A program made the translations under genes and the position numbers. Below the pieces are notes generated by a model. It had not been told where the DNA came from. It saw only the letters and a program-made list of their open reading frames with translations, and ran no database searches. This document shows positions 6,935 through 47,232 of a stretch of DNA of 64,000 bases, one piece after another (position 1 is the first letter of the stretch; each line of letters begins with the position of its first letter). This DNA comes from an uncultured bacterium (GTDB lineage: Bacteria; Poribacteria; WGA-4E; WGA-3G). The DNA lies in the NCBI GenBank assembly GCA_964523645.1, contig CAZGAW010000001.1:3305-67304 (forward strand), read 5' to 3'.

Positions 6935-7995
6935 AAGTCGTTATTTTAAGTGACAATAAACCCGGGCATTACAAACAGTCGTTAGGTATTGTCGAAAAAA
7001 TGCCGGAATCCCAAACGGAATGGCTTGAGATACAATTTCGGCATAAGTGGCGCGACAACCTTCTGCGCGTTTTTATGTCTATCTTTGGAGGCGTATCCCT
7101 CTCTACGTCACTCATCCATACGCTCTTACGATGGAGTCTTACCGCCGAGACGTACCACGCGCTGTCACAACTGAAAACCGCTGATATTACGCTCTCAACG
7201 GGTTCATCTGTGGCAGCGACCAATCTGCTTCTCGGTAGAATTCTCGGTGCCAAGACGGTTACATGTCGAAGACCTTCACCAGTAGGCATCCAACATTTCG
7301 ATCTCGCGATTCTCCCGATGCTCTATTGGCGCAATACCTCACGCAACGGCAATGTCTGTCGAACCATCGGCGTGCCGAACCCTATTTCACCAGACACGCT
7401 GAATGCCCTGCGGCATCAGTTGAAAAGTGAACTGAACCTACCGGACTGTCGGCGCATCGGCATCCTCCTCGGTGGAACCGATCGGCACGAGACCATCACT
7501 ATAGCAGCTGCTTCACAACTTAGCGAGATTTGCCGAGCCGCTGCAGAGAAGATAGACACACAGATATTGGTAACGACCTCCCGTCGAACGCCACCAGATG
7601 TGACAGCACACTTGACATCAACACTGAAACACACCGACCGGTGCCCTCTTTTCACCACCGCTGACACACCTTCAGAATTTGAAGACCCCTACCAAGCAAT
7701 TCTTGCCTTAAGCGACCTACTCATCGTCACTGCGGACAGCTTTTCAATGGTATGTGAAGCGGCAAGCAGTGGACGTAAGGTTATCGTTCTAACCCTGTCA
7801 CAAGAAAGCATCAGACTGCCGAAGCGATACACAGTTTATGCGTATATGGAAGAACATTCTATTGTAAGTCGGTGCAGACTTGACGACTTAGCAGCCTACA
7901 TCGCGAATGCCCTCACTTCAGATACATCTAACACACCGCTTCAAGACACAAAAACAGCGGTGCATGCAATCCGTCAGTTAGTGGCAAATCGCTAA
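6931..7995 (+). CDS. ELM1/DUF1022-family putative glycosyltransferase-like protein
   Basis: The N-terminus KVVILSDNKPGHYKQSLGI matches the hallmark ELM1-family opening. The start overlaps the upstream stop (ATGA), suggesting translational coupling. Confidence 0.65.
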   Translation: MKVVILSDNKPGHYKQSLGIVEKMPESQTEWLEIQFRHKWRDNLLRVFMSIFGGVSLSTSLIHTLLRWSLTAETYHALSQLKTADITLSTGSSVAATNLLLGRILGAKTVTCRRPSPVGIQHFDLAILPMLYWRNTSRNGNVCRTIGVPNPISPDTLNALRHQLKSELNLPDCRRIGILLGGTDRHETITIAAASQLSEICRAAAEKIDTQILVTTSRRTPPDVTAHLTSTLKHTDRCPLFTTADTPSEFEDPYQAILALSDLLIVTADSFSMVCEAASSGRKVIVLTLSQESIRLPKRYTVYAYMEEHSIVSRCRLDDLAAYIANALTSDTSNTPLQDTKTAVHAIRQLVANR

Positions 7996-34205: not shown

Positions 34206-36266
34206 CTATCCAGCGGACTGTTCCGTTGACTGTGTTTTCAATTCAGTAATTTGGTCACGTAAAGCAGCGGCTTCCTCATAATCAAGGTCCAATGCAGCTT
34301 TTCGCATCCGTCGCGTTAAGTCTGTAATTACGGCTTCAATATCTTGCGGTTCAATAGCCTCCGGAACGATAGTCGGTTTGTCAGGTTTATCGGTCTTATA
34401 GTCTTCACTCGATTCCGCAATAAGTTCCTGAATTGCCTTTTCAATCGTCGCAGGCGTGATATTGTTATCGGTGTTATACTGAAGTTGAATCTCGCGTCGG
34501 CGGTGCGTTTCCTTGATCGCTTCTCCCATCGCTTCTGTAACGTCATCTCCGTACAAAAGCACCTCACCATCAACATTTCGTGCAGCACGTCCAGCAGTTT
34601 GAACGAGTGACCTAACAGAACGGAGAAAACCAGGTCGGTCCGCATCTAAAATTGCAACGAGAGAGACTTCAGGGAGGTCAAGCCCTTCACGAAGTAGGTT
34701 GATACCGACAAGCACATCAAAAACACCTTCGCGGAGCTCGCGTAAAATACGGGCGCGGTCAAACACATCAATCTCAGAATGCATATAATCGGCACGGATA
34801 CCCGCTTCAGTCAAATACTCGGTTAAGTCTTCAGCCATCCGTTTGGTAAGCGTCGTGACAAGGACACGCTGTTTGTGCCTGACGCGTTCTTGGATTTTAC
34901 CGATGAGATGGTCTATCTGCCCTCTCACAGGATGTATCGTAATTTCAGGGTCGATGAGTCCAGTAGGACGGATAATCTGTTCGACAATTTGTGCGCTGTT
35001 TTCCATTTCATAGGGACCCGGTGTTGCGGAGACAAAGACAACTTGATTGACACGCCCTTCAACCTCGTCGAAACGGAGCGGACGATTGTCTAATGCGGAG
35101 GGCAGACGGAAGCCGTACTTGACAAGCGTCTCCTTTCGCGAACGGTCCCCTCGGTACATACCTCGCAGCTGCGGAATCGTTACGTGGGACTCATCAATGA
35201 ACAGGAGAAAATCATCGGGAAAGTAGTGCATCAAACAGTATGGCGGATCTCCGGGTTGCAATCCTGAGAGATGCCGTGAGTAGTTCTCAATACCGGAGCA
35301 GTAGCCTACCTCTCGCAGCATCTCCAAATCGAAACGGGTTCGCTGCTCAATCCGTTGCGCTTCCAATAATTTATTCTCTTTTTCAAAAGCCAGAATTTGG
35401 TCTTGAAGCTCAAGTTCAATATTAATCAATGCCTGATCAAAGATTTCACCGTCGGTCATGAAATGCTTAGCAGGATAAATCTCGAGAAAATCTCGTTGTG
35501 CCAATACTTCCCCGGTTGTGGTATCAATTTCGCTAATCCGATCAATCTCATCGCCGAAAAGCTCAATACGATAAGCATTCTCACTATAAGCAGGAAACAC
35601 TTCAACGACATCACCGCGAGCGCGGAACACGCCTTGCCAGAACTCAACATCGTTGCGGACATACTGAATATCGACCAACGCGCGTAGGAGTGCATCGCGC
35701 CGAACGACATCCCCGACGGCTATCTGAACTCTCTGATTTTCAAATTCATCGGGCGATCCGAGACCGTACAGGCAGGAAACACTCGCAACAACGATAACGT
35801 CACGACGCGATATTAAGGATGCTGTTGAGGCGAGCCGCATCCGTGTAATCTCTTCGTTAATACGGACATCCTTTTCAATAAAGGTATCCGTCGATGGAAT
35901 GTATGCCTCCGGCTGATAGTACTCATAATCGCTGACGAAATAGTGGACGGCGTTATTGGGGAAAAAAGTTCGGAATTCGTTGTAAAGTTGGGCAGCGAGT
36001 GTTTTATTTGGTGAGATGACGAGTGTCGGTAACTGGACGTTTTGAATCAGGTTCGCCATTGTGTAGGTTTTTCCGGAACCCGTCACACCGAGGAGCGTCT
36101 GTGCTTTGTCTCCACGTTGGAGACCCTCTGTGAGTTCATCAATGGCTTGCGGTTGGTCTCCTTGCGGTGTAAAGTCTGAGATTAGTTCAAATTGTAAGTC
36201 TTCCAGTTCGGAGTCGTCATCTTCTGGCTCATCAATCTTTGTCAGCAATTCCCAATTCTCTCTCAT
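34206..36266 (-). CDS. uvrB: Excinuclease ABC subunit B
   Basis: GVTGSGKT Walker A, helicase motifs, the beta-hairpin region, and the C-terminal UVR domain (AALDLDYEEAAALRDQI). 686 aa. Confidence 0.95.
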   Translation of the reverse strand: MRENWELLTKIDEPEDDDSELEDLQFELISDFTPQGDQPQAIDELTEGLQRGDKAQTLLGVTGSGKTYTMANLIQNVQLPTLVISPNKTLAAQLYNEFRTFFPNNAVHYFVSDYEYYQPEAYIPSTDTFIEKDVRINEEITRMRLASTASLISRRDVIVVASVSCLYGLGSPDEFENQRVQIAVGDVVRRDALLRALVDIQYVRNDVEFWQGVFRARGDVVEVFPAYSENAYRIELFGDEIDRISEIDTTTGEVLAQRDFLEIYPAKHFMTDGEIFDQALINIELELQDQILAFEKENKLLEAQRIEQRTRFDLEMLREVGYCSGIENYSRHLSGLQPGDPPYCLMHYFPDDFLLFIDESHVTIPQLRGMYRGDRSRKETLVKYGFRLPSALDNRPLRFDEVEGRVNQVVFVSATPGPYEMENSAQIVEQIIRPTGLIDPEITIHPVRGQIDHLIGKIQERVRHKQRVLVTTLTKRMAEDLTEYLTEAGIRADYMHSEIDVFDRARILRELREGVFDVLVGINLLREGLDLPEVSLVAILDADRPGFLRSVRSLVQTAGRAARNVDGEVLLYGDDVTEAMGEAIKETHRRREIQLQYNTDNNITPATIEKAIQELIAESSEDYKTDKPDKPTIVPEAIEPQDIEAVITDLTRRMRKAALDLDYEEAAALRDQITELKTQSTEQSAG

Positions 36267-36884
36267 CTTGGCGGCTGGCTCCTTGTCAAGTTTTCAATTG
36301 CCCCTGCAATATGGGGTTGCAGGCAGTGCTTTACATCAAGGCTACAAGAAATTTGTATGGTATGTGGTAGGTTTTATATAGTACTGGTATTTCTCAAAAG
36401 TACTCGGAAGCCACTATTTATCAATGGTTTCTCAGTACGAGGTTTTGAAAATGCTAAAAAATGCTAATTGATAGACCCCCATTTTGTGAAAAAAACACCT
36501 TGTTTTCAATACAAAATAGAATGAAATCGTCCATTAAATGGGTTTTTCGTAGGTATTTCGTGTTGATGTTATTAGGTTTAGCGGAATTAGAAAACTTTTA
36601 CTCATGCAAAATATGTGTGCGTTTGTTTTCACGAAGTCAATGGTCATAGGGGTAAAAAGTTTCATTTGCACTTATTTTTTACATGAACCGAACAATTGTG
36701 AGAAATCCCAGCATCGTATTTATGCATTTTAGGTACCTCTTGGCTCTTTGCAGGCTGCATTGTCTGCGCAATCCGCAGTTCAAAAATTGATTCCGCCACT
36801 TTTCCCACAATAAGGACATCTACTGATATTGAATCATATCATAGATGCGTCCATTTGTCAATTTCGATTTTGTGGAGCAGTCAG

Positions 36885-37079
36885 CATCGCAGATTGTCGC
36901 GGATTATCGCAGATGACGCGGATTATACCTTCGCATATCCTAAATTTTCTTTTTAAAAATCGGCTTTAACTGTTGTTTATCTTGCTGTGTATTTCACTGA
37001 GCTAACGTTCTGCGTCACAGATACCGATGCGTAATGGAAGTTAGAATCCGCGTTAATCTGCGCAATCCGCGATTCAGAC
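36885..37079. repeat. MITE-like GCGGATTA repeat, copy A (degenerate left end)
   Basis: 36918-37079 is roughly 85% identical (aligned by eye) to 38688-38859. The right end reads caATCCGCGATTCAGAC. Confidence 0.55.
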
Positions 37080-37180
37080 ATTTTCCGTTTCACTGCGGCG
37101 ATGTCTTCTGGTAGTTTAACATTATATTTCTACTCAAAGTCGGCAGTGCTTTATATGCCCAGTTGAACGGATTCGTACTT

Positions 37181-37774
37181 TTAGGGTAAATGGCTCCCGC
37201 TGCCGGTCTGGGACCAGAAATCTTCGGCGATCTGTTGGTGTTTCTGATGCAGCCAAAAATGAATTCGTCTTAGAATTCGAGGCAATCCTTTTTGCGGCAA
37301 GTTTTCCGCTTCCCAACTTGCCATTTGCCTCCGTAGGGAAACATCAATTGGGTTTTCAACCGCAATATCTACTTGATGGCAGGCTTGTATTAGTTTACGG
37401 TCATCTGTTGCAAGGATGTTAGCATTATGAGTGCGCGTTGCTTGCACCAAAACTGCATCGGTGATGTCAATTTCTAAGGTGTCGGCAATCTGCATCGCAG
37501 CGAGGGTTATCGGCAAATCTACCTCAATAATTTCTATAGGTCCTGCGGAAAATTGGGAAAGTTGTTGTGAGATAAGGTTGGCATCTACAGCATAAACCTT
37601 TGTGAGAACCGCCTTTGCTTCAAGCAGTGTAAGCGTTGTCGTGAACCAATTGGCGTGGTCTCGGATAAACGACTCACACGCGGCGGATGCGGGATGGTCG
37701 TCAAGCAGGGAGTAGACAATAAGCATCGCGTCTAACCCACGCGACGCGAATTGATCAGAAGATAAGATCATCAC
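37181..37774 (-). CDS. PIN-domain ribonuclease (VapC-like toxin) with a ~60-aa C-terminal extension
   Basis: LDAMLIVYSLLDD (first acidic residue) and ITDAVLVQATRTHNANILATDDRKL (C-terminal PIN motif). It overlaps the upstream AbrB-type gene by 20 nt. At 197 aa it is longer than the usual ~130 aa. Confidence 0.75.
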   Translation of the reverse strand: MMILSSDQFASRGLDAMLIVYSLLDDHPASAACESFIRDHANWFTTTLTLLEAKAVLTKVYAVDANLISQQLSQFSAGPIEIIEVDLPITLAAMQIADTLEIDITDAVLVQATRTHNANILATDDRKLIQACHQVDIAVENPIDVSLRRQMASWEAENLPQKGLPRILRRIHFWLHQKHQQIAEDFWSQTGSGSHLP

Positions 37775-37991
37775 CGCTCACCTCGGACAAGTCCAATGCT
37801 GAAGGTTTCCCTATTTTGAGCTTCTCGGCATAAATCTCGTCCCACGTCTGGGCAATGTAGGGACGGATTAGAATGCCATCGTCTACCCTCTCGATCACGA
37901 CCCCCGATTCCAATCCTAATTCTTTTACCCAGTCGAGGGGCAATTTGATTTTATGATCAGTTTCCAATGTGAGCGTTTTCATGGTATCCAC
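37755..37991 (-). CDS. AbrB/MazE/SpoVT-family antitoxin (VapB-like)
   Basis: KIKLPLDWVKELGLESGVVIERVDDGILIRP is the swapped-hairpin SpoVT/AbrB motif. It lies immediately upstream of, and overlaps, the PIN gene. Confidence 0.75.
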   Translation of the reverse strand: MDTMKTLTLETDHKIKLPLDWVKELGLESGVVIERVDDGILIRPYIAQTWDEIYAEKLKIGKPSALDLSEVSGDDLIF

Positions 37992-38098
37992 CTCTTCCTA
38001 CAAGTAGTTGAGAAAAGTATACCATAACTTGCATTGATTATCAATTGTTTCATTGGGAAATTTCTAATGGGTAGGGTTAGGGGTTGGCGTTTTCTTAT

Positions 38099-38146
38099 TA
38101 TCTGAATCGCGGATTATCACGGATTACGCGGATGACACGGATTTTT
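38099..38146. repeat. Solo left end of the GCGGATTA repeat
   Basis: tctgaatcgcggattatcacggattacgc is identical (29/29) to 38654-38682. Confidence 0.5.
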
Positions 38147-38186
38147 GTCCTTGTGCATGTGAAGTTTACTTTCCATAAAAGAGGTT

Positions 38187-38594
38187 TCAATTGCGTATCG
38201 GGCGGTTGGGTTGTGATAGAATCAATCTTTTGTAGTTTAAACTTTTCTCACCGAAATTGATTAATAAACCGACTTCCAGTCGATATGCCTTCAAATAATT
38301 TAGGAGTTGTGCTTTGTGTACATCTTCTAATTCTGTGATAGCCTTTAATTCCACTAACACTTTGCCTGCTACTATGAAATCTGCTCTACGTGTCCCAATA
38401 CGTTTCGGAAAATCTTTATAAAAAATATCCTGCTCAATTTCACGTGCGAACTCCAAACCGACTTTTCTCATCTCAATTGCCAATGCGCGTTGATAAATTA
38501 CCTCTTGGAAACCGTTCCCGAAATACTTGTGGACTTCAAATGCTGCGCCGATGATCTTCTGGGTTATATCTTTATGTTTCAGGTTGTTGTTCAT
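38187..38594 (-). CDS. GxxExxY protein (PD-(D/E)xK-like fold family, TIGR04256-type)
   Basis: IIGAAFEVHKYFGNGFQEVIYQRALAIEM...RADFIVAGKVLVELKA...AQLLNYLKA...GLLINFG is the full hallmark pattern, including GxxExxY. Confidence 0.85.
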   Translation of the reverse strand: MNNNLKHKDITQKIIGAAFEVHKYFGNGFQEVIYQRALAIEMRKVGLEFAREIEQDIFYKDFPKRIGTRRADFIVAGKVLVELKAITELEDVHKAQLLNYLKAYRLEVGLLINFGEKSLNYKRLILSQPNRPIRN

Positions 38595-38618
38595 TTATTT
38601 CCGGTATCCTTTTATATT

Positions 38619-38859
38619 TCTGAATCGCGGATTGTCGCGGATTACCTTTTTCGTCTGAATCGCGGATTATCACGGATTACGCAGATTTCGCGGATTATAC
38701 TTTCGTACATCCCAAATTTTCTTTGAAAAATCGGCTGGAACTGTTGTTTATCTTGTTGTGTATTTCACTGGGCTAACGTTCTGCATCACAGATAACGGTG
38801 TGTAACAGAAGTTAAAATCCGTGTTAATCCGTGTCATCAGCGTAATCCGCGATTCAGAC
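38619..38859. repeat. MITE-like GCGGATTA repeat, copy B (plus an extra half-site at 38619-38646)
   Basis: Terminal inverted repeats GTCTGAATCGCGGATTAT (38653-38670) and GTAATCCGCGATTCAGAC (38842-38859) match 17/18 as reverse complements. Confidence 0.6.
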
Positions 38860-38990
38860 GTTCCCCTCCACAATCGCAATTTTCTTCTCTGTTAAGTTAT
38901 ACAATTCGGACATCAGAGTATCAATCTCATTTTCAAGTATAAGTCTCGTATTGGTTTGTGTTTTGGTGAGGGTTATATTGTATTTTCAGG
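38860..38990 (-). pseudogene. Ghost 3' end of a second Eco57I/Type IIG-like methyltransferase gene
   Basis: Translation: KYNITLTKTQTNTRLILENEIDTLMSELYNLTEKKIAIVEGNV*. The live gene tail reads AKHTDPDSDTSDLEDEIDKLVYALYNLTEDEIAIVEGRV*. Both stop inside the same GTCTGA repeat end. Confidence 0.6.
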
Positions 38991-39001
38991 GTTCTTTGTT
39001 G

Positions 39002-39178
39002 CCTGAATCACGGATTATCGCGGATTACGCAGATTTCGCGGATTATTGACTTTGGTATCATCAAGTTGTATTTTCATGTCTGCTAATATAGGGTGTTGAC
39101 GCGCCCGTAGGTTATGCCGATACGATGCTCTTAAAATCCGCGTTAATCCGTGTCATCAGCGTAATCCGCGATTCAGAC
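39002..39178. repeat. MITE-like GCGGATTA repeat, copy C (same ends, different core)
   Basis: The left end is cCTGAATCaCGGATTAT and the right end is GTAATCCGCGATTCAGAC. The stop codon of the 1196-aa gene (39173-39175) lies inside the right end. Confidence 0.55.
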
Positions 39179-42100
39179 ACGCCCCTCCACAATCGCAATC
39201 TCATCTTCCGTTAAATTATACAATGCATACACCAGTTTATCAATCTCATCTTCAAGGTCGGAGGTGTCCGAATCGGGGTCGGTGTGTTTGGCATCAAAAA
39301 TCTGCTCAACTAAGGTGATAAAAGACTGTTTTTGCGAAGCAGGAATCCTGACGACAGGCAGTTTCTCTAAAGCGTGTTTGTTATACTGATACCCTTTTGC
39401 GCCGAGAACAGTACCACCACAGTACCGTTTATAAGCAAATGTCATCAATGTGGAACTTAGCAATCCCACCAGGATTTTTAAATCGCTCCCTGTAATCATA
39501 AAACAAGTTTTATCTAAAAAAAACTCCCCGCTGTCATAGAAAAAGTTTGCAGAATGGGTTGTTTCAGGATAAACGATCTTTTTATTATCAAATTCTGAAT
39601 AGTAAGCACAAGCCCTGAGATTCCACCAATTTACACCTTGGTCGTCTCTATCAAATAGTCCTTTACCTCTTGTTCTTATTTTCCCTGATTCCATCTGTTT
39701 TCCTACGGCCTCAAGGTGATTGTAGATGGCAGGATACTTTTCTGAAATATCAAGATCATAACCAGTGGCGAGTATATAAAATCCCGATTGCTGGACATGG
39801 TAGCGTTTGACATCTCGTCCGCGCAGAAGCGGTTTGATGATTTCAGCAGATTTTGAGTCTTGCGCTATGAGTTGTTCGCGCTTTGCCTCGTCTATGATGA
39901 ATGCTTCATTACAACCTGTTACAATTCCACGATAGATTTTTATATCCCAGTCTTTAAGGGGAACACCGATGTTCTCTATTTGCCGTTTCAAGTTAAGTTC
40001 ACGGGATGAGAGTATTGCCCACGGTTCACCTATATCGGGTGTTTCCATAGTTGCGCCATGGTCAATCAGATATTGAGCAATATTGCCTGTTTGTCTGTCA
40101 AAGTCCGCACTGATAGATACACCGCTGAAGGTATCAGAAACATCAGTGACAGTATTTTGGAATAGCAGAATATTCGTGTCTACTGCCGCATCAAACACAT
40201 CCGGTCCCATATCCAGCAATTGAATCGGTTGGGTGTGTTGAATAAAATAATCTCTCAACTTTTTTCCATACCCAGCGCGCATCCATTTGTTAGAAGTAAT
40301 AAAGCAGACATGTCCATTATTTTTTGAAAGTTTATGCGCTTTTTCATAGAACAAACAGTAAATATCGCCTGTGCGAACGAAGGTATCAAAACCTTTATCT
40401 TGATAGAGTTTTCCGAGCCTCCCACCGTCCTTTTGTAGTTGAATATAAGGCGGATTGCCAATCACTACATCAAATCCTTCTGTGACTCCGAACATCCATT
40501 CCGAGTCAAACCAATCGGCAGTGGCGTTTTGGTCGTAGGGATCCCAACAGGCAATCCTTTCAGCATCAGTGTCGGACATGCCGAAGTGCTGTAGTTCGGT
40601 TGCTAATTCTGCTCGCAACTCTTCGTCCTTAAGCTTGCATGCGCGTTTGCGTTGGCGAGTGGTGGCGTGGAAATGTTGTTCGCGATTGTCGCGCAGTGCC
40701 TGTTCCAAATCTCGCGCTGTGTTGCTCGTCAACGTTCCTTGTGCCTTGAGACCTATGAGTGTGTTTGCTGCAATAAACCGCGTCTCCAAATTCGGTAACG
40801 GTTTGATACCGAAATTCGCTGTGTGCTGCGCCGGTGCCTGCTCAATTGCGAGGGATATGAAAAAGCGGAGTTTAGCGATTTGGCACGCCACGGGTTGGAT
40901 GTCTACACCGAAGATGCTGTTTTGAATCAGGTATAACTTGCGTCCGAAGTCCGAATCTCGGTAACGCTTGAAGGTCTCATCAATTTCAACGAGTTCTTCA
41001 CGGCGTGCCTCGTCATCCTGCGTATCAAAAGCGATTTCAGCGCGTTGGACCGCGCGTTCCTTCTGTAATTGTTCCCATCGGGTGTTATCTGGGTCAAGCC
41101 GCCGCAGCGCAAGCGTGAGTTTGTGGAGCATCCCCACAGGGAACGCCCCAGAACCGACAGCGGGATCCAGTATCTTCAGTTCAGAAATTGCTCGGACGAT
41201 TCCATCCGTCTCGGCATCGTCAAACCATTCATTGGCATCGTCAAAGGCTTGTGCATAGTCGAGGAGGTAGTGTAACCGCTCATCCCAGAGTTTCGCGTCG
41301 CCATCGGTTGGGTCGCATTTTTGGGACAACGTAGCGACTAACGCCTCTTCCACCATATAGTCGACAATCGCGCGTGGGGTATAGTAGGAACCCGTCTGTT
41401 TGCGTACGGTTGCACCGGTTTCTGGGTTGTAGGCGGCGAGTAGATTTTCAAACACCCTACCGAGCAGTTCAGGATCCAACGCGACTTCCTGCTCTATCGG
41501 TGTGTTCTCTTCAACGGTGAATTTGTAATGCTCAAGTAGCGGGATCAATCCTTGCTGTGCATCAAAAAAGAGGCGGTTCGGGATGGATAACTTATGGTAC
41601 TGATTATCAGAAAAGCAGTCGATTCGGTAACTCTCATTACCTGTCGCTTCCCAACTATCCAGACAATCGAACAACCCACCGTTGATGAAGGGGGTTTTGC
41701 CGAACAGTTCCAATAGTTTATCAGGATCGCCCATCTGATCTTTGTAGCGGTAGCGTGAGAAATCCCGATTTGTAGCGTAGCCGACAGTGCTAAACTTTCG
41801 CTTGTCTATCTCGGTGTTTAGTGTAGCGAAAAAGAGGTTTTGTAGGACGGCACGGTAATAGGCATCGCCGTTATCAAAGTCAGTCTCTTTGAGTAGGTTT
41901 TGGATTTGGGCTTTGTTGAACAACGCATCTGCTACCAACCCTTTTTCCTTGATAAACCAGATAAAGAGTAGGCGCGTGATGAGTCGTATCACATGCTCTT
42001 CCGGTTTTATGACACGGTTTTCGTCTGTAGGGAACGTTGCTGTCTCTACTGCCCATTCATACCACGCGAAGAGTTTCCGATAGAATTGCTTGTTGAGTGC

Positions 42101-42763
42101 TTCGGTATCGAGTTTAGCGAGCCATGCTGCGAGTAATCCGTCGAAGTTTTTCGGTTTTTTGTTGGCATCCATCCAGTTCGCGCATGCTTCCAATGAGAGT
42201 TCGGAGAGGATGTCGAGATGTGCGCGGTGCGGATTGTTGAGGCGGATGTCTTTGATGAGCGTGACCTGTCCTAACACATCACGAGTCTCGTCTGTTTTGT
42301 GTGGACGGCGATCGGTAAACCCTATCGTCAGTCGATTTCCAGCGCGGAATAAGACGACGGTGGGTGCTAAGAATCGCTTGTTGATCTCTCGTGTAAATTC
42401 AGCGTATCTGGTACGGGAGTAGGTGTTATCTTTTAGTACAACTGCACAGAACAGGAAGCTGTCGGTATTTGCCTTGTCGAAAGCGTCTGCCTCGAAAAGT
42501 TGCTGCTGGATATCGTCAGCGACTTCATCGCTTGTGAATTGGAAAATGAGTTGCACGGATTCAGCGTTGTTGCGGAATTCCTGTTCAGTTTTGGTGTTTG
42601 GAGTCACGGGTGGGAATTCTTGAAAAAAGTCGTGGACGGTGCCGGAGAGTTCAAGTATGCGTTCACTACGATAGCCTATCGTTGCTAAGAGGTCTTTCGA
42701 TTTTTCTAAGAAGTCGCCGATGGGGATTGCTGCTAAGGCGGATTTGATTGCTGCTTTGTTCAT
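39173..42763 (-). CDS. Gamma-class N6-adenine DNA methyltransferase with a TaqI/Eco57I-type C-terminal specificity domain (Type IIG/PglX-like architecture), 1196 aa
   Basis: NGGLFD (aa 361-366); TGSYYTP (motif X, aa 457-463, near nt 41375-41395); ILDPAVGSGAF (motif I, near nt 41141-41173); VIGNPPYI (motif IV, near nt 40445-40459); a TRD-like region WWNLRACAYYSEFDNKKIVY; and a tail LVYALYNLTEDEIAIVEG. The N-terminal ~250 aa are unassigned. Confidence 0.9.
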   Translation of the reverse strand: MNKAAIKSALAAIPIGDFLEKSKDLLATIGYRSERILELSGTVHDFFQEFPPVTPNTKTEQEFRNNAESVQLIFQFTSDEVADDIQQQLFEADAFDKANTDSFLFCAVVLKDNTYSRTRYAEFTREINKRFLAPTVVLFRAGNRLTIGFTDRRPHKTDETRDVLGQVTLIKDIRLNNPHRAHLDILSELSLEACANWMDANKKPKNFDGLLAAWLAKLDTEALNKQFYRKLFAWYEWAVETATFPTDENRVIKPEEHVIRLITRLLFIWFIKEKGLVADALFNKAQIQNLLKETDFDNGDAYYRAVLQNLFFATLNTEIDKRKFSTVGYATNRDFSRYRYKDQMGDPDKLLELFGKTPFINGGLFDCLDSWEATGNESYRIDCFSDNQYHKLSIPNRLFFDAQQGLIPLLEHYKFTVEENTPIEQEVALDPELLGRVFENLLAAYNPETGATVRKQTGSYYTPRAIVDYMVEEALVATLSQKCDPTDGDAKLWDERLHYLLDYAQAFDDANEWFDDAETDGIVRAISELKILDPAVGSGAFPVGMLHKLTLALRRLDPDNTRWEQLQKERAVQRAEIAFDTQDDEARREELVEIDETFKRYRDSDFGRKLYLIQNSIFGVDIQPVACQIAKLRFFISLAIEQAPAQHTANFGIKPLPNLETRFIAANTLIGLKAQGTLTSNTARDLEQALRDNREQHFHATTRQRKRACKLKDEELRAELATELQHFGMSDTDAERIACWDPYDQNATADWFDSEWMFGVTEGFDVVIGNPPYIQLQKDGGRLGKLYQDKGFDTFVRTGDIYCLFYEKAHKLSKNNGHVCFITSNKWMRAGYGKKLRDYFIQHTQPIQLLDMGPDVFDAAVDTNILLFQNTVTDVSDTFSGVSISADFDRQTGNIAQYLIDHGATMETPDIGEPWAILSSRELNLKRQIENIGVPLKDWDIKIYRGIVTGCNEAFIIDEAKREQLIAQDSKSAEIIKPLLRGRDVKRYHVQQSGFYILATGYDLDISEKYPAIYNHLEAVGKQMESGKIRTRGKGLFDRDDQGVNWWNLRACAYYSEFDNKKIVYPETTHSANFFYDSGEFFLDKTCFMITGSDLKILVGLLSSTLMTFAYKRYCGGTVLGAKGYQYNKHALEKLPVVRIPASQKQSFITLVEQIFDAKHTDPDSDTSDLEDEIDKLVYALYNLTEDEIAIVEGRV

Positions 42764-42802
42764 GTGCTATCTGATTTCTTTTCTGAAACCTACACAATCC
42801 AA

Positions 42803-43018
42803 CTATGAAAATAGATGACTCATAAGATGTCGGAGTTGATGCAAAAACCTATTAATAGGTTTGTGTGAATTATCGGAAACCTCATCAGTATCTTTTACTT
42901 CATCCGGTAATTCTGAACGTAAGGCTTCCCACCGCTCTTGTGCGAGCGTCGAGACTTCTTCCGATATTCCGCGTTCCTTAAGATAATCTTCAAAGTTACT
43001 ACTGCGATGCTTATTCAT
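42803..43018 (-). CDS. Small hypothetical protein (71 aa) between the HigA gene and the methyltransferase gene
   Basis: MNKHRSSNFEDYLKERGISEEVSTLAQERWEALRSEL resembles the short N-terminal helices of some antitoxin or controller-like proteins. I cannot name a family. Confidence 0.4.
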   Translation of the reverse strand: MNKHRSSNFEDYLKERGISEEVSTLAQERWEALRSELPDEVKDTDEVSDNSHKPINRFLHQLRHLMSHLFS

Positions 43019-43029
43019 GCTGTTCGTAA

Positions 43030-43443
43030 TTATCGTTCCTCTGTTGAAACGTGGTGTTCATCAAGTTTCGGATTGGAGGTTGCTAACTCTGGTGAGGCTA
43101 CTGGAGAATCTTCAGTAGTATCTTCAAGATGTAGATTTGTAGTTGACAATGGGGCAGATAGTTGGCATCCAAGCGCGTTAAGAACCGTCCTAAGCGTGTC
43201 AACCTTTGGTGTTTTCGTACTATCTAACACTTCCGATAGGAGGTGTGGTTCAGTGTCTATTTTCTTGGCGAGTTCAGAAATTCCGTCCTGTGCTTCAACG
43301 ACATACTGAAGGGCCAACTGAACTGTCGCGATATTCCCATGGATATGATATTCTTCTATAACGGCATCAAGAAAACCACTTACATCACCCTGTTCTTTAA
43401 GTTGTTCTACAAGGAATGCGTCCCATGTTCCATAAATTTTCAT
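43030..43443 (-). CDS. higA: HigA-family addiction-module antidote protein (HTH)
   Basis: The pattern FLDAVIEEYHIHGNIATVQLALQYVVEAQ.GISELAKK....PHLLSEVL....TPKVDTLRTVLNALG matches TIGR02684-type antidotes. It overlaps the toxin gene by 4 nt. Confidence 0.8.
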   Translation of the reverse strand: MKIYGTWDAFLVEQLKEQGDVSGFLDAVIEEYHIHGNIATVQLALQYVVEAQDGISELAKKIDTEPHLLSEVLDSTKTPKVDTLRTVLNALGCQLSAPLSTTNLHLEDTTEDSPVASPELATSNPKLDEHHVSTEER

Positions 43444-43781
43444 TGTTTATGCCTCTCTTTGTATTCTTTCCAATAATTTTTTGCGCGCTCAATATCCCGT
43501 CTCTGCGAGGACTTATCGCCCCCACAGAGGAGCAGAACAATTGCGTTATCTACTTCACCATAATAGATACGATAGCCTGGTCCGAAGTCAAGTCGTAGTT
43601 CCCGAACCCCACCACCTACAGATCTATGGTCGCCAAGATTGCCAGTTCTAACAGATGTTAAACGTGCTTGAATCCGTCGTCGTATGCTTGGGTCCCGAAT
43701 TGAAAGGAACCATCTTGTAAAAGGTTCGTGACCGTTTGGAATCTGGTAAAAATTTATTGTCCGCGGATGTGCATTACGCAT
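43440..43781 (-). CDS. higB: RelE/ParE-superfamily toxin (HigB-like addiction-module killer protein)
   Basis: EPFTRWFLSIRDPSIRRRIQARL.....GNLGDHRSVGGGVRELRLDFGPGYRIYYGEVDNAIVLLLCGGDKSSQ..DI..A matches the TIGR02683 pattern. Confidence 0.8.
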   Translation of the reverse strand: MRNAHPRTINFYQIPNGHEPFTRWFLSIRDPSIRRRIQARLTSVRTGNLGDHRSVGGGVRELRLDFGPGYRIYYGEVDNAIVLLLCGGDKSSQRRDIERAKNYWKEYKERHKQ

Positions 43782-43968
43782 TGATGATCTTTCGTCTACC
43801 TATAATCGATAAGCGGCTACTCAAAATTGAAATATGGTAGATTTTACAATTACTTAGACTCCGTAAAGAGACGAGGTTACCAGAGGAAACACCCAAGCAA
43901 AAACACTTCGCCAGCGGCAGTGGAGCGCGCTAATGTTTAAATATAATATCATGCCCCAATATAAAAAG

Positions 43969-46900
43969 TCAAGATTGTGGTGTTGTGATGATTAGCCACG
44001 TTACCAGTTCAAAATCGCTGGAATCCTTAGGGGCTTCGGAAGCAACTGGCAGTTTGAAACCGCGGGTGCCGCTTCTCCCGATACTTTTGGATTGCGTCTT
44101 TTGATGGGATCGTGTGATGTGGGCGATAACGGCATTCAGCAATTTGTTGTAGGTTTCCATGTACTTGCCGTGTTGGGTCTCTTGGTCGAATTGGAGACAC
44201 AATTCTGACAATTCATCACTTTTACCGATAGCACAGGTTTCAAACAGGTCCAGCACTTGCTTAGCGTTCGCACACCCATAACGGATGTCGCCGTTTTTAC
44301 GGATGTAGACGGTATAATAGGGGTAGATAGGACTCGGTGTCTTTTTCTCAATATCCGTCGTGGCGTTGCGTTGCTGGAGGAAGAAGATGACACCGGTTTC
44401 TGTCGGACTGTTTTCGTTGGTCGTGACGGCATAAGCCCCTTTCGGTGTGGCTTCTAATTCGGCTCTATTTCTTTCGAGATACTTTAGCAACTGTGCAAAG
44501 AAATAATCAAACGTAAAATCGCTCATGACAACGCCATCAGAGAGATCGTCGAGGTCTAAAACATCTTCACGGAGTTGTTTCAACTGTTCGTCCCGAAAAT
44601 TGAGTTCCATCTGTGCTTGTTCATAGGTAAACTCGTTCAATGGGTCGTCATCACCACTGGCGGCTGTATCGGCGAGTGCCATACGGGATTCTACACGGCT
44701 TTGTAAACGGAGGTAAACCTCCATGTCTTCGGTGGGCCAGTAGTTAATCATTTTCACCGTTGCGTTACGGCTCCCGATTCGGTCGATACGTCCAAAACGT
44801 TGGATGATACGGACGGGATTCCAGTGGATGTCGTAGTTCAGCACGGTATCGCAGTCCTGAAGGTTCTGCCCTTCTGAGATGCAATCTGTAGCGATGAGTA
44901 CGTCTATTTCGTCAGCGGCGCTGTTTTTCTGAGTCCGTGCCTTTGGCGCGAAATTGTTTAAGGTGACATTGAATTTGTTTTGTGTGTCGTTTCCTGACAC
45001 CATTTCCACCTTCAGTTTTAATTCTGCTGCGAGGTCTGATAGGTTTTCATAGAGGTAGTCGGCTGTATCTTTAAAGGTTGTGAAAACGAGTACCTTGCGA
45101 TTGATTTTCCCGTCTTTGTCGGTCGTTGGGTTTTGTGCCTTATTCCTGATATGCGCTTTGATTGCCTTGAGTTTGCCGTCCCTTTCGGGCGTAATGGCTT
45201 TGACGTTATCCCACGCCGCGGTCAATGTCTGTTTGTCCTTGATGAGATCTTTTTTCCAACGGATGCAATCCAATTCGCGAAGATGATACGGGTTGCGTGC
45301 TCGGTTTACCAAAAACTCCTCATCGTCTTCGTCATCATCGGGGAGAACGTCCGCTTCCGCGTCCTGTGTACGCGGGTTTTGCTCATATCGGTCAATCTTC
45401 TCGAGCATATCATCAATTTTGCCGATGGTGCGTTCAAGTGTTTTCGAGAGCGAGTGTGCGGAACTTTCCAAACGTTTGAGGAAGTTGGTCTGCATCATGC
45501 CGATAAGGAATCGCTCGCGGTCTGCTTGGTTGAAACGGAATTTCTGTTTCTCATCTGCTAACCGTTGTTTTGCTGCGCTGCTAATGACATAACTGGACGG
45601 CTGATAGATGGAGAGTGTGAATTCGGCTATCTGGTCTGCCAGTGCCTTATAAGAGAGTTCACCTGTCAAGTCGGTGGGTGGATGGCAATTTTCCGGTTTC
45701 TGTGGTGTCGGAAACTCGCCGATTCTCACCATTTCTTCGGCGTAGAAGGTCTTAATATGTCTTCGGGAACGGGCAATAGAGATGCCACCGAGCAATTGGA
45801 AGAACTCGGCACCGAGTGTTTCCAGCAACTTCGCTTTGTCTTTTTTCCCGTTCTCACCGCCTGTCTCTTCCCATGTCTTGAATTCCTTTTGCGCCTGTCG
45901 CAGCAGTGAACCGATATTACCGATGCCTAAACTTTCTCTGAAGACATCCTCACGCTTTTCGGTCATGAGATAAATCTGATTACGGAGGTCAATGAGCGAT
46001 GTGTTCACGGGTGTCGCCGACAGCATCAGGACCTTTGTTTTTGTGCCTTCTTTGATAACTTCCTCCAGGAGCCGCGTATAGCGACTGTGGCGGACGAAGG
46101 TGCCGTCAGCATCACGCGTCGGTTTCGTGTCGTTGCGAAAATTGTGCGATTCGTCAATCACGACCATATCGAAGTTGCGCCAATTGAAGTTTTCCAAATC
46201 GCCACTATAGCGGGAGAGGTCGGTATGCCATCGCACGGTGTAGCCGAACTTGTCATCGAGGAACGGATTGGTGTCTTGCGAGTTATATGCGGGATAGCGT
46301 GCCCAATTGTCGTGCAGTTTTTTGGGACACAAGACCAACACGCGTTCATTACGCAGTTCAAAGAACTTGATGACCGCGAGTGCAGTGTAGGTTTTTCCTA
46401 ACCCCACGCTATCCGCTAAGATACAGCCGTTGTGCCGTAATAGACGGGCAATCACACTTTTTACGCCCTCTTTCTGAAATTCATACAACGTTTCCCATAT
46501 TTGGGTGTCATACAGATGCGTATCTTCAAGGGTTTGGTCGTTGGTTTTTCGGGTTTCGATCTCGTCTCGGAAGAGTTCGTATAGCGTTTTATAATAGATG
46601 CGTTCTGGGGCGTGATCTTTTCCGATCTGTCCTAATGTAGCGAGGACTTTCTCCTTGACATCTTCAACGAGTTTATCGTCGCTCCAGATTTCGTCAAACC
46701 ACGCTTTTAGATCCTGACGGTCGCGGTTGCTATCCACTTCCAAATTGAGTTCGATGTTGTTGCTATCCTGCGTTAACCCTAAGCCGCGCATGGTAAAGTT
46801 TGAACTACCCATAATCGCCTTTTCAATACCGTTATTGGCGATATGATACATTTTCCCGTGTATCAGATTTGATTCGCGGGTTGTGCGGATTTCCACCTTC

Positions 46901-47232
46901 TCTTGTATCCATTTGGCACACGCTTTGGCAATCGGTTTCTGGCGGAGTTGCTGGTTGAGTGCTAAGCCTGTATCCGTTATGTCAAACGCTTTTTTATCTG
47001 AGTTATTCGGATCCATACGTTTGACAAAATCGGGGTCACCAAAAAGAAAACGGAGCTCCTCTATTTCGTTGAGGGCGTGTTGCATCTTTTCGTAGGCATA
47101 GATGGTGAAGTAGGCGGATACAATGGAGAGTGCGGAACCGTTCTGAATTTCCTGCTGTAAAAAATCGTGAACTGTTTCACGAAGCAGGTTGTCTCGGATG
47201 CCGGATTTTAGAGATGCGTTTTTATTTGACAT
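43969..47232 (-). CDS. Fusion of an N-terminal PLD-like (HKD) nuclease domain and an SNF2-family SF2 helicase/translocase, 1087 aa
   Basis: LIHGKMYHI...GSSNFT (HxK..GSxN, aa 123-147, near nt 46790-46866); ILADSVGLGKT (motif I, near nt 46390-46425); VVIDESHNFRN (motif II, near nt 46129-46161); MLSATPVNTSLIDL (III); LIATDCISEGQNLQ (V); QRFGRIDRIGS (VI, near nt 44770-44802). The C-terminal ~260 aa are unassigned. Confidence 0.9.
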   Translation of the reverse strand: MSNKNASLKSGIRDNLLRETVHDFLQQEIQNGSALSIVSAYFTIYAYEKMQHALNEIEELRFLFGDPDFVKRMDPNNSDKKAFDITDTGLALNQQLRQKPIAKACAKWIQEKVEIRTTRESNLIHGKMYHIANNGIEKAIMGSSNFTMRGLGLTQDSNNIELNLEVDSNRDRQDLKAWFDEIWSDDKLVEDVKEKVLATLGQIGKDHAPERIYYKTLYELFRDEIETRKTNDQTLEDTHLYDTQIWETLYEFQKEGVKSVIARLLRHNGCILADSVGLGKTYTALAVIKFFELRNERVLVLCPKKLHDNWARYPAYNSQDTNPFLDDKFGYTVRWHTDLSRYSGDLENFNWRNFDMVVIDESHNFRNDTKPTRDADGTFVRHSRYTRLLEEVIKEGTKTKVLMLSATPVNTSLIDLRNQIYLMTEKREDVFRESLGIGNIGSLLRQAQKEFKTWEETGGENGKKDKAKLLETLGAEFFQLLGGISIARSRRHIKTFYAEEMVRIGEFPTPQKPENCHPPTDLTGELSYKALADQIAEFTLSIYQPSSYVISSAAKQRLADEKQKFRFNQADRERFLIGMMQTNFLKRLESSAHSLSKTLERTIGKIDDMLEKIDRYEQNPRTQDAEADVLPDDDEDDEEFLVNRARNPYHLRELDCIRWKKDLIKDKQTLTAAWDNVKAITPERDGKLKAIKAHIRNKAQNPTTDKDGKINRKVLVFTTFKDTADYLYENLSDLAAELKLKVEMVSGNDTQNKFNVTLNNFAPKARTQKNSAADEIDVLIATDCISEGQNLQDCDTVLNYDIHWNPVRIIQRFGRIDRIGSRNATVKMINYWPTEDMEVYLRLQSRVESRMALADTAASGDDDPLNEFTYEQAQMELNFRDEQLKQLREDVLDLDDLSDGVVMSDFTFDYFFAQLLKYLERNRAELEATPKGAYAVTTNENSPTETGVIFFLQQRNATTDIEKKTPSPIYPYYTVYIRKNGDIRYGCANAKQVLDLFETCAIGKSDELSELCLQFDQETQHGKYMETYNKLLNAVIAHITRSHQKTQSKSIGRSGTRGFKLPVASEAPKDSSDFELVTWLIITTPQS

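Follow-up and report, generated by a model that had tools for sequence, protein, structure and literature searches.

The stretch of DNA analysed here, 64,000 nucleotides long and referred to below as the window, comes from an uncultured bacterium of the Candidatus Poribacteria (contig CAZGAW010000001.1). Between uvrB and the gene for a type IIG restriction-modification methyltransferase it carries an island of 'GCGGATTA' repeats, made up of three hairpin units of ~200 bp each (A, B and C) and of several solo ends, together with a small gene of the GxxExxY family (PF13366). We present here evidence that the units and solo ends are very probably the ends and gene-less derivatives of GxxExxY-associated inverted-repeat elements, with the GxxExxY gene as their cognate gene and not a passenger. 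The island as a whole is best explained (probability about 0.6) by a family of GxxExxY nuclease elements, whose ends and gene-less derivatives have accumulated where the methyltransferase gene ends, with homology-driven exchange of cassettes. The form of the canonical element is well supported: 5′-(A/T)TTGTCTGAAY, about four GATT-core subrepeats at 9 nt, a gene of ~125 codons, and a mirror-image array ending RTTCAGACAA(T/A)-3′.

Inverted arrays around GxxExxY genes and in the window

Eighty metagenomic loci were retrieved through the GxxExxY protein alone. Nearly all contain GTCTGAAY with GATT-core subrepeats just 5′ of the start and the mirror image, ending RTTCAGAC, just 3′ of the stop. By an exact hexamer criterion (within 200 nt), TCTGAA was found upstream at 51 of 77 loci and TTCAGA downstream at 50 of 78, against a background of 0.06 to 0.10 per equivalent stretch in the same contigs. 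The consensus of 130 unique ends, aaTTGTCTGAATCaCGGATTAaacgGATT.., has GAT[TG] at +12, +21, +30 and +39, with a modal spacing of 9 nt. More distant proteins come with other flavours of the subrepeat (GGATT, TGATT and others), while GTCTGAA at the terminus is retained. The termini on the left and on the right co-vary: pairing holds in 91.4% of cells, compared with 80% in shuffles, and 86 cells are changed on both sides, compared with 32; none of 500 shuffles reached the observed values, and slid controls gave 22 to 47% pairing. Among the mismatches in the paired termini, G:T (12) and A:C (14) are equally frequent, which favours a constraint at the DNA level over an RNA stem on one strand.

Each end in the window is an array of about four subrepeats, (C/A)CGGATTA, in 9-nt phase, running inwards from the terminal GTCTGAATC. 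The motif CTGAATCRCGGATTA, with up to two mismatches, matches seven times, all between 37063 and 39176, at 37063(-), 38102(+), 38620(+), 38655(+), 38843(-), 39003(+) and 39162(-); these are the seven sites listed in an earlier note made from the letters alone. Shuffled sequence matched 0.25 times on average, seven matches were reached in none of 100 shuffles, and the rest of the window outside 36.8 to 39.2 kb holds no further copy at this threshold. The three units are 177 to 207 bp long and non-coding, with termini of 17 to 18 nt. The terminal inverted repeat of unit B is perfect over 18 nt, and the ends of unit C differ by one mismatch over the motif and match at 86% over 29 nt, in agreement with the near-perfect termini reported before. 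Units A and B are 84% identical over 129 nt plus 51 nt, with cores common to both (the estimate by eye had been ~85%), and unit C shares only its ends with them (63 to 72%). Because the two ends of each unit are inverted, the units fold as long hairpins; folding, proposed earlier as a check, gave strong hairpins with z-scores of -5.7 for B, -4.2 for A and -2.8 for C.

One gene-bearing copy (38101-38646) stands amid the three gene-less units and the solo ends. Its array at 38101-38144 has the same position relative to the GxxExxY gene as in the metagenomic loci. A promoter-like TTGACT-17-TATTTT lies within unit C at 39046-39074. Two chance-level matches only (E 1.2 and E 3.3) were found with Rfam on 36200-39400 at permissive thresholds, and no T-tract follows the stems. 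When the hairpin cores and spacers were compared with the island proteins by tblastn, no remnant of GxxExxY, PIN or antitoxin was detected, only the methyltransferase tail; an origin of A, B and C by recent internal deletion from copies with a gene is therefore unsupported here. The 9-nt subrepeats and the extra solo ends, and the stop codon link and duplicated gene tail described below, go beyond the earlier note.

A scan of 596 Gb of public sequence (one genome per species) found the 15-mer in at least 120 stretches, at least 54 of them from Candidatus Poribacteria, with several loci per genome. Dispersed copies occur at at least five loci in CBDBFT010000001.1 and at least four in OZ244616.1; with copies at many loci in several Poribacteria genomes, the proposal of a dispersed family in place of local duplications holds. 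For a 15-mer with one degenerate position, ~2,000 matches are expected by chance in 596 Gb (our own arithmetic, even base composition), so that single matches mean little. Loci were kept only if GGATT subrepeats follow the motif, which gave ~85 array loci in Poribacteria, Bacteroidota (Saprospiraceae, Chitinophagaceae, Hydrotalea and Pseudopedobacter), Cyanobacteria (Pseudanabaena and Dolichospermum), a spirochaete, Desulfobacterota, Ignavibacteria, Latescibacterota and Patescibacteria. The loci that match the window best are themselves from Poribacteria. The pattern GTCTGAAYNNNGATT... has the wrong spacing for the GGATT type and missed true copies, and its result was disregarded. Many of the array loci are compact palindromes of 70 to 200 bp between ordinary genes. 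PF13366 is the only Pfam family that recurs beside them (7 loci by iterative search; 5 of 110 small open reading frames [ORFs]). The larger neighbours that recur are histidine kinases and restriction-modification genes, and no transposase family recurs beside the ~85 loci.

Other repeats were seen next to the arrays. At a Poribacteria locus (L041, 3880-4560), another short palindromic family (..agccccagcggggcgacatgt..) is interleaved with GTCTGAATC arrays. A miniature inverted-repeat transposable element (MITE) of another kind, ~330 bp long with termini ATGAAGATTAA..TTAATTCGGTAATT, contains a GTCTGAATC hairpin. Its copies in genome OZ244616.1 lie at distant loci (L043, ~6960-7290; L049, ~1000-1340; L111, ~2320-2650), and at all three it is inserted in the centre of palindromes resembling repetitive extragenic palindromic (REP) sequences (ggtgcggtt..aaccgcacc, ggacacaaacta|acagtttgtgc). 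In Pseudopedobacter (L021, 1880-2240), tandem copies of a different repeat, GTCATTGCGATGAGC..GGGCGAAG(C/T)GGCAATCTC, adjoin the arrays. Sequences of this kind accompany small GIY-YIG genes in many phyla, and this likeness suggests that other small nuclease genes may have conserved flanks of their own.

Host gene ends and differences between relatives

The methyltransferase gene takes its stop codon (39173-39175) from the terminus of unit C, where it forms the TGA of GTCTGAATC. The left terminus is likewise entered by a host ORF (at least 100 codons, same direction) at 21 of the 41 loci that could be assessed; 12 of these ORFs stop at T(G/A)A within GTCTGA and 9 within the first array. The sequence at 38860-38937 duplicates the last 26 codons of the methyltransferase gene (86% nucleotide identity; 72% amino acid identity over 25 residues, E 1.4e-8). 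Among 49 aligned gene-bearing loci, about one-quarter also have long, imperfect direct repeats of the host gene end on their flanks. Seven histidine-kinase contigs (L127 to L133) have duplicated kinase tails, with the right junction ..GATTCAGA(C/T)(A/G)A(G/T)(T/C)TA(T/C)GATAT... The series in L128 reads kinase tail, gene-bearing element, second tail, empty hairpin and third tail, and the three tails differ. In L148 the duplicated part is the 5′ end of hsdM. One histidine-kinase junction is used in seven contigs, yet many unrelated sites are used as well. No short direct repeat of the target-site duplication type flanks the units in the window or the gene-bearing elements.

At an unrelated locus of another Poribacteria genome (L202), with no methyltransferase gene nearby, a block was found that consists of the spacer, the methyltransferase tail, a hairpin with a C-type core, the truncated array and a GxxExxY gene 93% identical to that of the window. 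The methyltransferase tail therefore travels with the element and is not a local duplication. Elements appear to have come with a replacement for the host gene tail each time they arrived, which would account for the duplicated 26-codon fragment. In the metagenomic contigs L180, L196 and L174, a GxxExxY element lies between the stop of an anthranilate-synthase component II-like gene (..NWLDV*) and the next start (MKKILQYL..), with gene identities read from the translated ends; the element may have persisted at this operon junction for a long time, or the junction may have been targeted more than once.

The UvrB protein encoded on scaffold L201 is identical to that of the window, and the flanks are 96.8 to 99.1% identical. 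L201 differs from the window in two places. The first holds the spacer, the methyltransferase tail and unit B in the window, and in L201 a TIR-domain gene fragment (5′ part), a different hairpin unit and solo ends. At the second, the antitoxin gene, the PIN gene and the core of unit A in the window stand against a DUF433 gene in L201, which matches the window at unit A only from 36917 leftwards. A ~90-nt leader, 85% identical, precedes the toxin-antitoxin cassette in the window and in L201 alike. In L109, which is more distantly related, the two cassettes stand in tandem, each behind the leader, which is thus present twice, with arrays between them; a TIR-TPR gene and a fusion of AAA_21 with DUF4435 are present as well. 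Read most simply, different parts of a longer cassette array have been lost in each, through recombination in leaders and arrays. The arrays and the leader serve as portable homology, through which toxin-antitoxin and defence cassettes between the arrays are gained, lost and exchanged.

The site downstream of the methyltransferase gene varies in further relatives. It is empty in L111 (methyltransferase C-terminus ..EGSV*, with GTATGA overlapping the TIR gene start); in L094 and L022, a 90-bp hairpin at the methyltransferase/TIR-gene junction supplies GTC-TGA. The site is therefore polymorphic among the relatives L201, L111, L094 and L022, and the comparison of L201, L109 and other Poribacteria bears out the description in the earlier note of repeats that bracket cassettes; the content of these varies. 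Different array-separated genes occupy this position in L109 (2741-6050), L022 (494-5786) and L094 (1404-3574): TIR-TPR, the fused AAA_21-DUF4435 (OLD/PARIS-like), Fic/DOC and a DUF433-DUF5615 pair.

The GxxExxY protein and the genes of the island

The ORF at 38187-38594 matches PF13366 with 128.3 bits (cut-off, 22) and TIGR04256 with 135 bits (cut-off, 35). The motif residues G28, E31 and Y34 and the catalytic residues D72, E82 and K84 are invariant in the family alignments. The AlphaFold2 model reached a predicted local distance difference test (pLDDT) score of 91.3 with a diverse alignment and 42 with 33 close homologues only. Its closest solved folds are Cas4 SSO0001 (E 2.8e-4), tRNA-splicing endonuclease, lambda-type exonucleases, AddB/AdnAB nuclease domains and the Holliday-junction resolvase Hjc. 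PADLOC gave a weak Cas4b match, and a profile search against the sequences of solved structures gave no match. Judged by the invariant D/E/K residues and the confident model, the nuclease looks functional, and 76 of the 80 metagenomic copies are intact. Some relatives of ~260 to 290 amino acids have two tandem GxxExxY domains, so that fused nuclease dimers exist.

Copies from Hydrotalea flava (Bacteroidota) and from a spirochaete share 79% and 75% identity, respectively, with the protein, which far exceeds the expectation for vertical descent between phyla and indicates horizontal spread. A single-sequence search of clusters at 50% identity returned 15,620 representatives at E <= 1e-3 and 3,884 at E <= 1e-10. 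Only two relatives were found among 2.9 million viral contigs, both in restriction-modification contexts with arrays, and phages are therefore not the main carriers. A 2012 survey of PD-(D/E)XK proteins listed PDDEXK_3 as of unknown function and noted multiple transfers (PMC3424549). Exactly the window's GxxExxY protein was seen in two contigs only (L207 and L208), 0.9 to 1.1 kb long; this suggests to us that the arrays break up short-read assemblies.

The genes of the region are all on the minus strand (Table 1). The earlier note had placed an AbrB/PIN pair and the GxxExxY gene, co-oriented, between the repeats; the PIN and GxxExxY genes stand, and the AbrB assignment has a match of E 0.0045 only, below the family cut-off. 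The PIN/antitoxin pair is 89% identical in nucleotide sequence to a pair that adjoins an array in another Poribacteria genome (L002). No transposase, integrase or other recombinase was found among all the annotated ORFs of the island, as had been stated before. PADLOC matched 39173-47232 to its candidate system C3a139 'HKD+Snf2' (E 4.7e-99) and to REase_MTase_IIG (E 1.6e-125). Since the methyltransferase and the PLD(HKD)-SNF2 protein match this candidate, the repeats lie at the edge of a defence locus adjoining uvrB. The HigB/HigA-like pair sits between the helicase and methyltransferase genes, and no arrays flank it. A Uma2/DUF820 gene (PF05685, E 1.6e-32), of another PD-(D/E)XK family, is present in the window outside the island, among otherwise housekeeping genes.

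Table 1. Features of the island and its surroundings (coordinates in the window)
Feature	Coordinates	Strand	Remarks
uvrB	34206-36266	-	
Degenerate solo right-type end (..GCGCAATCCGCAGTTCAAAA)	36757-36788	+	85% identical to unit A right end; also in strain L201
Hairpin unit A	36880-37079		Left array degenerate (GTCAGCATC...); right array ends GATTCAGAC at 37071-37079
PIN-domain toxin gene	37181-37774	-	Cassette cargo; PF01850, E 1.4e-9
Small antitoxin-like gene, weak MazE/AbrB-type	37755-37991	-	PF04014 (MazE_antitoxin); overlaps PIN start
Promoter-like TTGATA-17-TATACT	38016-38044	-	Within the ~90-nt leader common to different toxin-antitoxin cassettes
Array, four subrepeats	38101-38144	+	On the gene strand, canonical GxxExxY downstream end (..AATCCGCGATTCAGA)
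GxxExxY gene	38187-38594	-	Intact small PD-(D/E)XK nuclease; PF13366, E 2.5e-37; TIGR04256, E 1.4e-39
Truncated array directly upstream of GxxExxY gene	38619-38646	+	Non-canonical orientation; longer version in L201 and L202
Hairpin unit B	38653-38859		Gene-less, 18-nt perfect termini; not in strain L201
Remnant copy of the last 26 methyltransferase codons	38860-38937	-	Followed by GTC-TGA of unit B
Hairpin unit C	39002-39178		Terminus GTCTGAATC at 39170-39178 (minus strand) contains methyltransferase stop; common to L201
Eco57I-like type IIG restriction-modification methyltransferase gene	39173-42763	-	Host gene, 3′ end capped by element
HigB/HigA-like toxin-antitoxin pair	43030-43781	-	Weak matches: Gp49/DUF891 (HigB-like), E 0.0016; HI1420-type antidote, E 1.9e-4
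PLD-SNF2 helicase gene	43969-47232	-	

Competing explanations, related systems and significance

Four other explanations were weighed. The earlier note had proposed a non-autonomous family mobilised in trans. On this explanation, the repeats would be classical MITEs moved by a DDE or other transposase with its gene elsewhere in the genome, and GxxExxY one captured passenger among several. The short, genome-dispersed units with terminal inverted repeats fit this, as do the many copies without a gene, the other cargo between Poribacteria arrays and the hairpin that rides inside another MITE. We nevertheless consider it improbable: no target-site duplication was seen, no transposase family recurs beside the ~85 array loci or is present in the island, and carried host-gene tails are not a transposase signature. 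Moreover, one gene family is consistently built into the repeat architecture across phyla and subrepeat variants, which is not expected of a random passenger. The alternative offered in the same note, an integron-like cassette array with the hairpins as attC-type sites for a tyrosine recombinase, would suit the small co-oriented cassettes (toxin-antitoxin pairs included), the imperfect palindromes between them and the content that differs among relatives. It has very little probability, as the island contains no integrase (IntI) or attI, the ends GTCTGAAY/RTTCAGAC do not fit the attC core consensus RYYYAAC/GTTRRRY (position 4 of the 3′ core is C, not R), the cassettes carry their own promoter-like leader, and the same hairpins stand single at hundreds of unrelated intergenic sites.

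A role mainly at the RNA level also has a low probability. The inverted arrays would base-pair into a long stem enclosing the GxxExxY mRNA or shielding adjacent genes, in the manner of the ORF-bearing 23S rRNA intervening sequences treated below, and spread would be secondary. This explanation draws on the strong hairpin folding, the co-varying termini and the elements that lie precisely between a host stop and the next start inside operons (for example, trpG/trpD and hsdM/hsdS). The equal frequency of G:T and A:C shows no bias for a transcribed strand, however, solo ends and tandem same-orientation ends are common, and T-tracts after the stems and Rfam matches are lacking; dispersal and the carried gene tails would be left unexplained. 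Such a role could coexist with mobility. Purely local duplications without a wider family are scarcely credible. The A/B cores, 84% identical, were not found in the other loci examined, but the ends recur in the at least 120 public stretches (at least 54 from Poribacteria) and around metagenomic GxxExxY genes, by which this explanation is already refuted. The earlier note had held that a lack of other copies and of polymorphism would point to local duplication; copies exist elsewhere and the site is polymorphic.

Several observations weigh against the GxxExxY element family as the explanation. A GxxExxY gene lies within 8 kb at only ~8% of the array loci, so that most hairpins are orphans, and the arrays in Poribacteria flank many other gene types. 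The window's own GxxExxY gene is without a canonical upstream array. Some hairpins spread by hitch-hiking, as indicated by the one inside the ~330-bp MITE (in one genome). The gene and its arrays would co-vary through simple linkage, and ordinary RecA recombination between repeats could give the cassette differences without any activity encoded by the element. The fold matches are weak (best E 2.8e-4, TM score about 0.5) and cover a minimal RecB/Cas4-like core only, and binding or cleavage of the arrays by the GxxExxY protein is putative. Among the relatives compared, no clean strain-level pair of empty and filled sites was found for a single hairpin unit, and target-site duplications are likewise missing.

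For the GxxExxY element family, a mechanism can be put forward tentatively, at somewhat less than even odds: the nuclease would act on the subrepeats and termini, and the element would spread by break-induced copying or recombination. The Cas4/RecB-like nuclease may recognise the phased subrepeats, as duplex or as extruded hairpin, and cut at or near the GTCTGAA termini; the breaks might then be repaired by copying from other copies, in a homing-like recombination. By another possible route, an excised circle would integrate through the carried gene tail. The model would involve no cut-and-paste transposition by a DDE transposase; recombination fits better than DDE transposition because of the missing target-site duplications, the carried tails, the tandem same-orientation solo ends and the cassette exchange in shared sequence.

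The family was compared with known systems. In its working the element appears akin to a MITE/REPIN system that has a cognate gene, and to a free-standing homing nuclease gene. Like MITEs and their autonomous insertion sequences, the family combines many dispersed copies of short units, non-coding and with terminal inverted repeats, with a longer relative that has the same ends and bears a gene; unlike them, it lacks target-site duplications, its gene encodes a ~125-amino-acid PD-(D/E)XK nuclease and not a transposase, its ends are 9-nt-phased subrepeat arrays, and pieces of host gene ends are carried. REP sequences and their doublets (REPINs) with REP-associated tyrosine transposases (RAYTs), reportedly described by Bertels and Rainey in 2011 and by Nunvar and colleagues in 2010, are also extragenic palindromic doublets that fold into hairpins, usually at gene ends, with one associated flanked gene. 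Here, in contrast, the flanked gene belongs to PF13366 and is not a Y1/HUH transposase, and the termini are GTCTGAAY with no GTAG head. REP/RAYT systems are species-specific and vertically inherited, whereas the present family is nearly identical across phyla.

Free-standing homing endonuclease genes include that of the PD-(D/E)XK enzyme I-Ssp6803I. They resemble the present, putatively selfish element as selfish single-gene nucleases with carried flanking host sequence and recurrent insertion at one conserved host position (here probably the histidine-kinase ..LS|YDIVKAHGG), and differ from it in that conserved inverted arrays, multiplying gene-less copies and many unrelated target sites are found here. 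The ORF-bearing intervening sequences of 23S rRNA with four-helix-bundle genes (TIGR02436), where RNase III removes the intervening sequences, share a small ORF between long inverted repeats, the same phyla and a frequent position inside type I restriction-modification operons; the protein family differs. With the query consensus used, no four-helix-bundle gene was found in the retrieved loci, and this result is uninformative as to GTCTGAA/GATT arrays around such genes. In integron attC arrays, too, imperfect palindromes able to form hairpins separate small cassettes that are co-oriented and variable and in many cases encode toxin-antitoxin pairs; the present arrays differ in having no IntI/attI, other core sites and cassettes with their own promoter-like sites.

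It is a bolder and rather unlikely proposition that GxxExxY genes do not encode ordinary host nucleases but are the engines of an unrecognised class of mobile element, made up of a minimal Cas4-like nuclease and 9-nt-phased recognition arrays. Such elements would insert at host gene ends, supply a stop codon and a replacement tail, and shed gene-less hairpins in large numbers, and the hairpins would assemble and reshuffle defence and toxin-antitoxin arrays without a transposase or integrase. A mechanism of a new kind is likewise less likely than not, but the chance of it is real. Literature searches for the motif, GxxExxY, PF13366/TIGR04256, PF05635 and PDDEXK with inverted repeats found no description of the element, with subscription journals outside their coverage.

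The conserved, co-varying inverted-repeat architecture gives the large function-unknown PF13366/GxxExxY family a testable role. The element accounts for a pattern noticed long ago, GxxExxY genes inside restriction-modification operons and at the ends of histidine-kinase genes, and it explains spurious C-terminal extensions and may explain breaks in sponge-symbiont assemblies. It also offers one concrete route by which defence-island cassettes are gained and lost between strains with identical housekeeping genes. Should the nuclease prove to read the 9-nt subrepeats, it would merit study as a compact module for sequence-directed DNA recognition.

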